Assembly: GCA_049325335.1 (NCBI GenBank) | Contig: JBMOMC010000006.1 | Location: 1 to 64,000 of the forward strand | DNA: 64,000 bases | From: Nitrospirota bacterium | Lineage (GTDB): Bacteria > Nitrospirota > Nitrospiria > 2-01-FULL-66-17 | Reading direction: 5' to 3' | Shown: positions 3,436-11,752 of the stretch, one piece after another | How positions within the stretch are numbered: the stretch's first letter is position 1 | Layout: every line of letters starts with the position of its first letter | Program-made: the position numbers and the translations under genes | Notes under the pieces: generated by a model | Seen by the model: the letters and a program-made list of their open reading frames with translations, nothing else | Databases searched by the model: none | What the model was told of the DNA's origin: nothing

Positions 3436-3846
3436 ATGAAGAGAGACATTCCCGTGCGATCAACATATCATCGGTCATCAGCCATCGGGATTTTGACCCT
3501 GTTGGCGGTTTTGATCCTGGCGCCATGCCTGCACGCGCAGGGGACGGAGATCGTCGAACCGCACGCGCCGGCGTCGCATGCCAGCGATCGGGATCCGTGC
3601 TGTTTTGATTCCTATACCCATCGGTTCGTTGAATCGCATCCGCCGTGTGCCGATGCCGTGACCGTCGCGCGGGGCGCCTTGGACCGAGAAACCACCCAGC
3701 CAGTCACAGCCGCTGTTCCGGTTCCTCTCTCATTACAGGACTGGGACCAAGTTGACGTCGATCTGACGACCCCGTTCCGCGAGGAACGCGGCTTCAAAGC
3801 CCAATCCGCCTCCCTGTATACCCTGCACCGGCAGTACCGTCTCTAA
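3436..3846 (+). CDS. exported His/Cys-containing leader protein upstream of czcCBA (candidate regulatory uORF)
   Basis: Signal-peptide-like N-terminus, HAPASH..DPCC..H..HPPC centre, C-terminus LYTLHRQYRL shared with 10368-10721. Confidence 0.7.
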   Translation: MKRDIPVRSTYHRSSAIGILTLLAVLILAPCLHAQGTEIVEPHAPASHASDRDPCCFDSYTHRFVESHPPCADAVTVARGALDRETTQPVTAAVPVPLSLQDWDQVDVDLTTPFREERGFKAQSASLYTLHRQYRL

Positions 3847-9518: not shown

Positions 9519-9950
9519 TTACGCACCAATGGTCAGAACCGCCAGCTCACCCTTCATCTGCGGGTGCAGGTCGCAACTGAACTTGAGCGCGCCCACGTTG
9601 TGGGGTTCGAAGATGATTGCGGCCTTCTCGCCAGGGCCCACGTACACCCCTTTGATCCCGCGGCCGTAGGTCACAACGCCGTGAGCCTCAACGCGCACGT
9701 CCACGTCGGCCAATCCCGGGGTGGTGAAGCCGTGCTCGATCTTGTCCGTGTTATGCAGGACAATCCGAATCGGCGCTTGCAGACGCAACACCCGGGACTC
9801 GACCTTGAACGCTGAATCGCGGATGGTAATCTCCACGGTCTGGATCGGCTCTTCCCCGCCCGCCGGACTCCACGCCCCCGGGAGGACGGCCCCAGCCGCC
9901 ACCGCCGCAGCCAGAATCGCCGACCCCGCCAACTTGCCGATCTTAGGCAT
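9519..9950 (-). CDS. exported cupredoxin-domain protein
   Basis: Start MPKIGK after AGGAGG; signal peptide; HGF...CDLHPQM type-1 copper ligand pattern (His, Cys, His, Met). Confidence 0.85.
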   Translation of the reverse strand: MPKIGKLAGSAILAAAVAAGAVLPGAWSPAGGEEPIQTVEITIRDSAFKVESRVLRLQAPIRIVLHNTDKIEHGFTTPGLADVDVRVEAHGVVTYGRGIKGVYVGPGEKAAIIFEPHNVGALKFSCDLHPQMKGELAVLTIGA

Positions 9951-10118: not shown

Positions 10119-10367
10119 CACCAGGCTGTGCGACGTCAGCCGGGTCTGGTAGGCAGCAGTTACCCTTGTTTTTTGGGGGGGATGAGTGGCCCTTTGGGTG
10201 GGGGTAGCTGGCCCTTGTGCATGGCGAAAACCCTCCTTTTGGGGTATAGCAGGCCGAAAGCCGCGAGTGCTAGGCTCAACTCCGCGATTGGAACGTATAG
10301 TCGCTTTGGATTGCTTTTTGAGATGGGATTTGTTATCCGTAGCGCCTAGACACACCGGGGATCCTAT

Positions 10368-10721
10368 ATGACTCGAGTACCCCGCACCCAGGGAAGCGCG
10401 TTCGGATTGCTCGCTGCGTGGTTCGTCGTCTGTCTCCTCTGCCAGTCATATCCTGTGATGGCCGAGGCACATCATTCGGCTTCCTCCGAGGCCGACCACG
10501 CCTGCACTACCGTGGCGGAGGCCGTTCCCAGCGCTCCTTCCACTCCCAACTTGGTGGGCGAATCGACGCGGAGTACTGACCAGGTTTACGATCTGGTTCT
10601 GACGGCGTCACCACTGCTTGACGGAATGTTCGGGAGTGTAAGTGCGCGATTTCAACGCGACACATCGTCGTCCGTAAGCCACGTCAAGCTCTATCAACTC
10701 AACCGCGTTTACCGTATTTAA
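10368..10721 (+). CDS. exported His/Cys-containing leader protein (paralog of 3436-3846)
   Basis: Signal-like N-terminus with CLLC, HHSASSEADHAC, C-terminus LYQLNRVYRI. Confidence 0.7.
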   Translation: MTRVPRTQGSAFGLLAAWFVVCLLCQSYPVMAEAHHSASSEADHACTTVAEAVPSAPSTPNLVGESTRSTDQVYDLVLTASPLLDGMFGSVSARFQRDTSSSVSHVKLYQLNRVYRI

Positions 10722-10827
10722 CCCCACCGCCCCTCCGGGCTGATGTCCTGATCGTTCGTTTTCAGAACTTCTGACAACGTAGTACGCGGTGTCGGCTGAT
10801 TCCAGTTCCGGCCGCGAGGAGATCCGA

Positions 10828-10935
10828 ATGGGGCGTGCCTCATCGGTGACCGTGATCCAACTGGCTTTGGCGGCAACCGGTTTTCTGATCAACGTTTCTG
10901 GGAAATGGTCCAGTCGACGCCTAATGACGGCGTGA
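10828..10935 (+). CDS. 35-aa small ORF (possible truncated signal-peptide remnant) downstream of the second leader
   Basis: GAGGAG at 10816-10821 then ATG; MGRASSVTVIQLALAATGFLINVSGKWSSRRLMTA. Confidence 0.3.
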   Translation: MGRASSVTVIQLALAATGFLINVSGKWSSRRLMTA

Positions 10936-11044
10936 AGCGCGGCCCGTCGCGTGATTTGGTTGGAACAGGCCATTCGACCGTTGCGGTCTGAGAGCCGGAG
11001 TGAGGGATAACGGGCACCATGGCCTCGAGACAAGGAGGGACAAA

Positions 11045-11695
11045 ATGACACGAACCGCATGGAAATGGATCGGGCCTGGCCTTGTCGTGATCGTCGCACT
11101 CTTCATCGTAGTGTCCTATCTCTACGACCAGAAGGTCCATATGCAGGTTATCAGTCATATGCCGGACCCTCCGGATGTGCCTGGAGGCGGTGTGTACGCC
11201 GGAACGCTCACCGATTCCGACGTGGGCAAGGCCTATTTGCGCGTCTGGGAGGCCAACACTCGACGGCTGAACGGACCGGAGTATGACCTGGAGATTCGGT
11301 TGAACGATGCGGCGTTCTTCGAGGCCTTGGCCGCCGTCGAGGGTAAAGACGCGCGCGATACCGGCGCGCGGTACCAGGCATACAAGGATCGATATCATTT
11401 CAACCAAAGGGTCGTTTTCACCGTGGAGATGCACTCGCCCAAGGGACGCCTCTTCGACGTGAAGCCCGAGCGGCAGGCCACGCTTCGGCTGGACTCCGGG
11501 GAAGAGTACGAGCCGGAGCGCTGGTCCGACTCAAATAGGTTCAGCGAGTATCGCCGTGAAGGCGTCTTGAACTTCGCGCGACATGATGGGCACCCGATCC
11601 TCGCTTCAAGCACCAAGACGATTGAACTCGTTTGGCGTGATCCGGCCACCCACGAGGAGCGGCGTGCCGTGTGGGAGCTACAGCAAGAGCCGTAA
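11045..11695 (+). CDS. membrane-anchored periplasmic hypothetical protein
   Basis: AGGAGGG RBS then ATG 11045; N-terminal TM helix; soluble C-terminal domain ending in ..RREGVLNF..RRAVWEL. Confidence 0.75.
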   Translation: MTRTAWKWIGPGLVVIVALFIVVSYLYDQKVHMQVISHMPDPPDVPGGGVYAGTLTDSDVGKAYLRVWEANTRRLNGPEYDLEIRLNDAAFFEALAAVEGKDARDTGARYQAYKDRYHFNQRVVFTVEMHSPKGRLFDVKPERQATLRLDSGEEYEPERWSDSNRFSEYRREGVLNFARHDGHPILASSTKTIELVWRDPATHEERRAVWELQQEP

Positions 11696-11752
11696 AAGGC
11701 GGAGGGCCGATCGAATGAACGCGGAGAGGCCGGTGCACGATCCGAGAGGGCG

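Follow-up and report, generated by a model that had tools for sequence, protein, structure and literature searches.

Does the 117-codon open reading frame at 10368-10721 encode a leader peptide that governs the gene behind it, and if so, by which route and with what present output? The ORF lies in a 64,000-nucleotide stretch of DNA from a Nitrospirota bacterium (the window), and a first-pass annotation had described it as the second of two exported leaders with a common C-terminal motif. The ORF with its CLLC and HH..HAC motifs and its LYQLNRVYRI-stop end, as reported then, is correct in all coordinates and in sequence. Its parts are as follows.

10368..10721, forward strand: leader ORF, 117 aa, supported by ORF translation, orthologues, and pN/pS
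10368..10463, forward strand: predicted signal peptide, residues 1-32, containing CLLC (22-25), with cleavage after A32 assigned by rule
10470..10505, forward strand: His/Cys patch H35-H36...H44-A-C46, a candidate metal site
10689..10721, forward strand: stop-anchored LYQLNRVYRI-stop, a candidate arrest sequence whose ending recurs in 25 of 26 relatives found by their N-terminus

Export of the leader is a prediction, based on a hydrophobic helix (residues 9-27) and an A-x-A-like cleavage site assigned by rule. This helix is the sole confident element of the AlphaFold model (mean pLDDT 53), in which the linker is of low confidence. The earlier call of an exported protein is thus retained as a predicted signal peptide, but CLLC falls inside the predicted signal helix and outside the mature part. 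By the lipobox consensus for lipoprotein signals, CLLC was ruled out as such a signal, the lipobox being absent. In the mature part, HH (35-36) is followed by HAC (44-46), and H36 is invariant in alignment A1. C46 lies 72 residues from the C-terminus and the CxxC 93-96 residues from it, about 75 residues separate signal and terminal motif, and the proline nearest the C-terminus is 36 residues from the end. The leader has no Pfam match at E 0.1, including DUF2946 (PF11162), and no NCBIfam match, the 28-bit cut-off of HYC_CC_PP (NF047658) not being reached. Pfam and NCBIfam searches likewise assign no family to the 150-aa target described below, and an Rfam search returned nothing meaningful.

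Judged from its sequence and its relatives, the ORF is a real gene. It belongs to a leader family that has no annotation and whose members combine a predicted signal peptide, a His/Cys patch some 70 residues before the C-terminus, a linker, and a stop-anchored YxLxxxYR[IL]. In the source genome (G000), [YF]xLxxxYR[IL] ends exactly four of 374 short hydrophobic ORFs, with stops at C6 3846, C6 10721, C7 23214, and C7 16805. These copies sit in two paralogous metal cassettes of the order leader1-tolC-mfp-czcA-leader2-target. Since the motif occurs only four times in non-terminal position in all six frames of the genome, the four terminal copies are not due to chance, for which genome counts give an arithmetic expectation of about 0.08. 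The other copy in the window shares the family design and has a textbook anti-Shine-Dalgarno (anti-SD).

3436..3846, forward strand: sister leader, 136 aa, ending LYTLHRQYRL, ahead of tolC-mfp-czcA

As had been noticed at first pass, the two window leaders are barely alignable: BLASTP aligns their last 23 residues only (7/23 identical). A protein search recovered orthologues of the 117-aa leader in G001 (84% identity) and G003 (48%), and paralogues in G000, G001, G034, and G006. Against the G001 orthologue, pN/pS is 0.34 overall, 0.13 in the last 12 codons, and 0.33 in the N-terminal part with signal and His/Cys patch, while the middle diverges freely (20% identity to the C7 paralogue). Because the N-terminal part is conserved among orthologues as well, selection extends beyond the last 10 residues, where the first-pass annotation had seen it concentrated.

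A DNA pattern applied to 151 genomes of the class uncovered many leaders in family f12 and one in f11. Circularity was avoided by searching f12 with the first 80 residues of one leader only: 25/26 matches end YxLxxxYR[IL]-stop, and the 26th ends LYQFNPTLRI-stop. Among 80 family proteins, the strict motif is found in 70 and a final R-[ILV] in 79, counts that are not independent, as the profile included the ending. The profile matches bear the source names Manganitrophus, Manganitrophaceae, or Nitrospiria and are annotated 'hypothetical protein'. Pro-Pro is absent from the last 15 residues of all 40 locus leaders and all 80 family proteins. A cysteine stands 60-76 residues from the end in 35/40 leaders, usually after the His patch; the other five lack this Cys. 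The motif codons vary synonymously (Arg by five codons), and the stop codons TAA, TGA, and TAG are used by 23, 15, and 2 of the 40 leaders, which indicates that the constraint acts on the peptide; an RNA-level constraint on the terminal motif was rejected on these grounds. The claim of a genuine leader family thus stands, with four copies in the source genome and many more in relatives.

Across the genomes searched, the family is patchy, as judged from few matches in the phylum, in three other phyla, and at efflux-channel loci. The A3 profile, run over 201 genomes of the phylum, matched firmly in G000 and G001 only, with one weak match besides; with so few matches, its reach ends with the subfamilies from which it was built. 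Among at least 120 listed loci of the DNA pattern in the genome collection (about 660 estimated), two looked like leaders, L083 in a named Nitrospiria record and L171. Pattern searches in 81 genomes of each of the three other phyla gave 53 new loci, which were examined and include no exported leader; seven further matches without a locus were left out. Of 30 family-f3 loci encoding the efflux channel that follows the leader in L196, 29 have no upstream exported ORF by our filter and one has a RAPP-type ORF. Single motif-bearing leaders also precede an efflux adaptor in a record from Omnitrophota (L171/L280) and occur in metagenome contigs.

Several arrangements within the family deserve mention. 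On G079:C1 (3464843-3481540), five leaders lie within 17 kb, each ahead of a different gene, and one of them ends LYQFNPTLRI. Locus L004 (G034:C69) has two tandem motif-bearing ORFs ahead of tolC-mfp-czcA, the first being cut by the contig end. The metagenome leaders L191, L196, L201, and L206 carry the ending with few or no Cys at the sensor position and precede carbonic anhydrase or efflux channels; in such Cys-poor leaders, the ending may serve other signals.

From the 40 leaders, 25 non-redundant downstream proteins were chosen and scanned. Fourteen are metal genes: outer-membrane efflux channels (5), multicopper oxidases (4), Metal_resist proteins (3), a heavy-metal ATPase, and a MerR regulator. 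The remaining 11, not plainly metal-related, comprise two YtkA-like proteins, one each of cytochrome c, MetA-pathway barrel, aldo-keto reductase, carbonic anhydrase, and sorting-domain protein, and four without a family. None of the 25 is secA, secDF, or yidC. Within the window, czcA and copA exceed the heavy-metal RND and copper-ATPase cut-offs, and copper appears the likeliest metal. With the family genuine and situated ahead of metal genes, neither of the outcomes named at first pass as fatal to the leader reading, a coincidental motif or ORFs lying away from metal genes, has come about.

Immediately behind the 117-aa leader, the target is broken. As first annotated, a Shine-Dalgarno sequence (GAGGAG, 10816-10821) and an ATG (10828) follow 106 nt past the leader stop and open an ORF of 35 aa (10828-10935), which was suspected to be a truncated gene.

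10828..10991, forward strand: pseudogene remnant, made up of the 35-aa ORF (10828-10935) and its continuation in another frame (10905-10991), as seen when its DNA and protein are aligned with those of G003 and G001

Comparison of syntenic loci, the check proposed at first pass, bears this out. The corresponding gene in G003, behind the orthologous leader and spacer, is intact: its N-terminal ~150 residues make up a membrane protein without annotation, to which a Metal_resist protein is joined in frame, and a copper ATPase comes next. The window retains the 5' end of this ~150-aa membrane-protein gene up to a one-base frameshift near 10895, after which similarity is lost. An assembly error was ruled out as the cause of the frameshift, since 10765-11700 recurs without a difference in a contig that a second study produced. 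In G001, a different 7-base gap truncates the gene onto merR. There, at 2091 of locus L002, the original frame of the remnant ends in a TGA that overlaps the merR ATG, as if the truncated gene had once handed leader control to a regulator. An intact copy of the target was not found in G000; the C7 paralogue has a recognisably related spacer, which leads to an intact cytochrome c gene. With the direct target broken in two of three orthologous loci, a present function of the 117-aa copy appears doubtful.

The next intact gene lies on the same strand, 323 nt past the leader stop, and heads the operon from 11045, the other target that had been considered. Direct gating of this operon finds no support: its start has its own strong ribosome-binding site, predicted to be open (2.5 kcal/mol). 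Placing a ribosome on the stop of the 35-aa ORF leaves this energy as it was, so that gating of 11045 through that ORF is unsupported too. The one RNA sequencing run aligned to the region covers 11517-11667 only; small-share sequencing runs were set aside. In G003, the homologue of 11045 is 10 kb away from the leader. At L055 (G091:C174), a locus of another family, a leader is followed by a short remnant and then by a homologue of 11045. A weak terminator-like hairpin lies directly past the 35-aa stop of the window (10937-10952); three such hairpins were found in the region against 0.9 expected.

Upstream, 120-140 nt before the leader, lies an element resembling AA[AC]AC[CT]CCnTTTG[AG]GGTAT (10230-10251). 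It is conserved in four leader-2 loci (window, G001, G003, C7) and one f12 locus (L057) and is a candidate operator or promoter. A CsoR operator upstream of the leader was rejected, G000 having no CsoR. Between czcA and the leader, there is a divergent cupredoxin-like gene (9519-9950, reverse strand) that is absent from this position in G001 and in the C7 cassette; a sigma-70-like promoter (10118-10089) points towards it. At 10187-10216, the direct repeat TGGCCCTT occurs twice, the only such pair in the genome.

Can the spacer between leader and remnant act as a switch? Three of its elements matter here.

10728..10740, forward strand: first spacer element, forming by folding either a local GCCC/GGGC hairpin or the helix with 10824-10835 proposed at first pass; it lies under a ribosome on the stop codon
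10743..10749, forward strand: predicted anti-SD ATGTCCT, from the RNAalifold consensus of four spacers and ensemble probabilities, with no covariation
10816..10830, forward strand: Shine-Dalgarno GAGGAG and ATG of the gated gene, both invariant in the four spacers

The complementary stretches CGCCCC-TC-CGG (10728-10738) and CCG-AAT-GGGGCG (10824-10835), which had been thought to occlude the ATG, are present; their helix is one of two competing states and not the conserved SD-covering helix. Its outer 6 bp form with p=0.43-0.56 and its inner 3 bp with p=0.23-0.28, against p=0.42 for the rival GCCC/GGGC hairpin, and in four homologues 78% of it is paired with no compensatory change. The SD-covering helix is formed by ATGTCCT (10743-10749) with AGGAGAT (10817-10823; p=0.59-0.70). 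Accordingly, the consensus fold of four leader-2 spacers consists of the GCCC/GGGC hairpin and a helix between the SD and an anti-SD at +22 to +28. When at least 8 nt past the stop are blocked in the window copy, the anti-SD/SD helix falls from 0.7 to at most 0.07, the 10728-10738/10824-10835 helix is abolished, and GGGC (10737-10740) pairs with GTCC (0.86-0.99), an exchange that would amount to an attenuator-like switch. After blocking, other pairings cover the SD or AUG of the window copy.

For the family at large, we blocked the leader end plus 12 nt past the stop and took the drop in opening energy of the next start as relief. Thirty of 40 leaders were kept, with hand-chosen starts, and ten dropped that have no clear proximal start. 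Relief exceeds 3 kcal/mol in 18/30 leaders, against 8% of 211 crudely called G000 gene pairs (nominal p about 1e-6, overstated by kinship among leaders); the other 12 show no large relief. Moreover, the first 12 nt past the stop are at least 75% pyrimidine in 22/30 leaders, compared with 6% of 1,969 long ORFs. In six leader-1 spacers, two changes preserve the anti-SD/SD helix, one of them compensatory and the other one-sided; the fold recurs in five f12 spacers. The 3436 sister leader has a predicted relief of 9.9 kcal/mol. Spacers down to 43-46 nt occur in the family. Opening of the next start by a stop-parked ribosome is thus supported by prediction for the family, but no net gain was reproduced at the 10368 locus or its two orthologues. 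In these, predicted relief is negative (-1.9, -1.0, and -3.6 kcal/mol); the SD-only figure for the window copy changes sign with the window folded, and the 2:3 helix of the leader-2 subfamily has 4 bp and no covariation. We therefore do not carry the on-switch over to the 10368 locus.

Among described systems, CutF of Rhodobacter capsulatus is presented as the first to turn an extracytoplasmic ligand into ribosome stalling, for which it needs a PPP motif and EF-P (PMC9973294; bioRxiv 10.1101/2025.02.05.636593). CutF and CutF-like proteins share with the leader a length below 150 aa, a Cys/His patch, and a conserved C-terminal motif (PMC9973294; bioRxiv 10.1101/2025.02.05.636593). Further, they have an SD-shielding structure behind the stop, and efflux proteins of the outer membrane or multicopper oxidases are found next to them (PMC9973294). 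For the N-terminal Sec signal peptide that the CutF-like survey calls by SignalP, the leader has a candidate in its hydrophobic helix 9-27 and the cleavage site assigned by rule. The survey also asks for a same-strand gene within 1,000 nt, usually metal-related, with a shielded SD, which the window leader has (its SD is paired in the consensus fold), but also for Pro-Pro in the last 15 residues, which leader and family lack (PMC9973294). Unlike CutF, the leader has no DUF2946 match, its CxxC lies within the signal helix, and its Cys stands ~70 rather than 45 residues from the motif. In addition, the motif ends at the stop codon, so that arrest would fall at termination and be independent of EF-P.

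CruR (Bp2923) of Bordetella pertussis, a DUF2946 protein, is likewise an upstream ORF at the head of a copper operon, with a predicted export signal, a CXXC, and a long spacer (PMC9426467). The window leader differs in having no RAPP 45 residues after the CXXC, and targets in its family are mostly for export or detoxification, whereas CruR serves uptake (PMC9426467). The evidence for our leader also favours initiation control over Rho. One leader relative scores E 0.054 against DUF2946 (PF11162), below the cut-off. CzcI of Cupriavidus metallidurans, a small exported gene before czcCBA, similarly has no C-terminal proline motif (PMC9973294); a CzcI cluster is among the Atlas look-alikes of the leader (score 0.92, with only 76 of 256 features), but no sequence match to it was seen. 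Both kinds of ending can occupy one slot: the efflux-channel orthologue at L267 lies behind a hydrophobic ORF of 122 aa (G144:C40, reverse strand, 753-1121) with the end IIRAPPAA, and the orthologue in L196 follows a leader ending PLYQLHAVYRI. In G000, two short exported Cys/His-rich ORFs ending RAPPVL (C2 214381, reverse strand) and RGPPFLLV (C6 106596, forward strand) are candidates for classical RAPP-type leaders.

The HYC_CC_PP family of Bacteroidota shares size and genomic slot with the leader family, but the window protein matches neither its model nor its HYC, CC, and PP motifs. The sole leader above the HYC_CC_PP cut-off (NF047658), the Bacteroidota-type L199, ends LYQLHSVYRI, exactly like f12 leaders. 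Among 21 HYC_CC_PP matches (two below cut-off), 14 end [FYWL][RL][ILN]-stop, six have LYxL ending two residues later, and one has neither; the 14 are counted by the last three residues, and a strict regular expression fits 4/21. Since nine of the 21 have Pro-Pro in the last 15 residues, some HYC_CC_PP proteins may stand in published CutF-like lists. No paper on this family was found in open-access text.

Exported upstream ORFs that arrest with a stop codon in the A site are known, ending NSP-stop, NAP-stop, or DGMK-stop (PMC10987492). The leader agrees with these monitoring-substrate arrest peptides in export signal, conserved C-terminus, and a spacer of more than 30 aa, but theirs precede sec or yidC genes and monitor secretion, and its motif is a different one (PMC10987492). 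As reported, KYxIW acts 7-11 residues from the peptidyl-transferase centre, the distance at which YxL of the leader would lie. PepNL and TnaC-type peptides also arrest at termination (PMC11890864); some of the known stop-codon arrest peptides sense small molecules in the cytoplasm, and again the leader motif differs. The string 'YRL' is absent from the main text of PMC12992588, and no publication describing a YxLxxxYR[IL]-stop ending was found in open-access text, though the clusters in Fig. S6 and File S1 of PMC9973294 could include it.

Taken together, our analysis makes it fairly probable that the 117-aa leader is a cis-acting nascent-chain metal sensor that would pause the ribosome at termination and thereby uncover the next start. 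This reading starts from the gene, its family with an invariant stop-anchored ending, the place ahead of metal genes, and the broken target. Export would be co-translational, such that the His/Cys patch, with its Cys 60-76 residues from the end, reaches the periplasm while the last codons are read. The last ten residues would then act in the exit tunnel and delay termination, as proposed for CutF, and the delay would be greater with bound metal, most likely copper, and a weakened pull of the translocon. The paused ribosome is predicted to cover the first ~12 nt past the stop, where most members carry the anti-SD; in the leader-2 subfamily, the switch would run via one extra helix (1:2 and 3:4 off, 2:3 on). 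The membrane-protein, Metal_resist, and copper ATPase genes behind the G003 orthologue are the probable ancestral target. In the window, the leader is intact but its direct output is gone; what remains is at most a polar, indirect effect on the genes from 11045 on.

An unlikely explanation is plain translational coupling combined with a C-terminal sorting or degradation tag that a PDZ protease or sensor of the periplasm, such as a DegS/Prc-like protein, would recognise once the leader is exported. It would account for a motif strictly at the free C-terminus that ends hydrophobic-x-hydrophobic, and the folding signal needs no stall; ordinary terminating ribosomes also open an anti-SD adjoining a stop, which counts against taking that signal for stalling. 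A PDZ ligand, however, usually needs less conservation than the ten residues spanned here (-10, -9, -7, -3, -2, -1). Such a tag also sits poorly with a Cys-to-end distance kept across unalignable subfamilies and with the 6/21 HYC_CC_PP proteins that keep LYxL yet end two residues later. The rapid degradation of CutF after export fits it (PMC9973294).

Improbable, in turn, is transcription control of the CruR type, in which a paused ribosome shields a Rho loading site and its release leads to Rho termination in the spacer. The family-wide anti-SD directly past the stop points to initiation control instead, and spacers as short as 43-46 nt also count against it. Still, CruR works by Rho (PMC9426467), the genome encodes Rho, and the leader contains two C-rich, G-poor windows (from 10468, C 0.44/G 0.23; from 10668, C 0.38/G 0.18; given here with no control comparison). 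Under Rho control, the window copy could continue to act on the genes running in its direction, from 11045 through the copper ATPase, and such control would suit a leader that stays intact despite its broken direct target.

Very improbable is a free periplasmic His/Cys metal-binding peptide or chaperone, encoded as the first gene of metal operons and with no role in cis. Its predicted signal peptide, His-rich mature start, and purifying selection on the N-terminal half speak for it, but structure prediction (mean pLDDT 53) gives no fold apart from the signal helix, the middle diverges freely down to 20% identity with the C7 paralogue, each target operon has one copy and a genome up to five, and the anti-SD past the stop is conserved. 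A coincidental motif in unrelated or spurious ORFs, to which the alignment of the two window leaders over 23 residues only and the mostly chance nature of genome-wide DNA pattern matches (2 real-looking among at least 120 loci listed) might point, has next to no probability, being refuted by the N-terminus-only search and by codon variation, the genome-wide motif count, and the paralogous cassettes.

For a sensor that pauses the ribosome at termination, the novelty is the proline-free, stop-anchored ending, not the 10368 copy with its dead direct target. Because that target is broken, the 10368 copy is a poor test case, and the 3436 sister and the f12 leaders are better ones. We tentatively propose, as a serious possibility falling somewhat short of a probable one, that the proline-free decamer (hydrophobic-Y-x-L-x-x-x-Y/F-R/L-I-stop) is an undescribed termination-arrest motif of exported metal-sensing leaders in several phyla, and that it may also be the working element in HYC_CC_PP, with Pro-Pro secondary. 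If true, metal bound in the periplasm by such leaders would inhibit release factors on the other side of the membrane, by a route independent of polyproline stalling. Surveys that filter on Pro-Pro or RAPP would miss this proline-free family, as their filters demand what it lacks. A proline-free, stop-anchored ending in a CutF-like slot, shared with an unstudied Bacteroidota family, is a short and testable candidate for a new arrest chemistry, and through it, many genes labelled 'hypothetical' that precede metal pumps and oxidases would gain a function.
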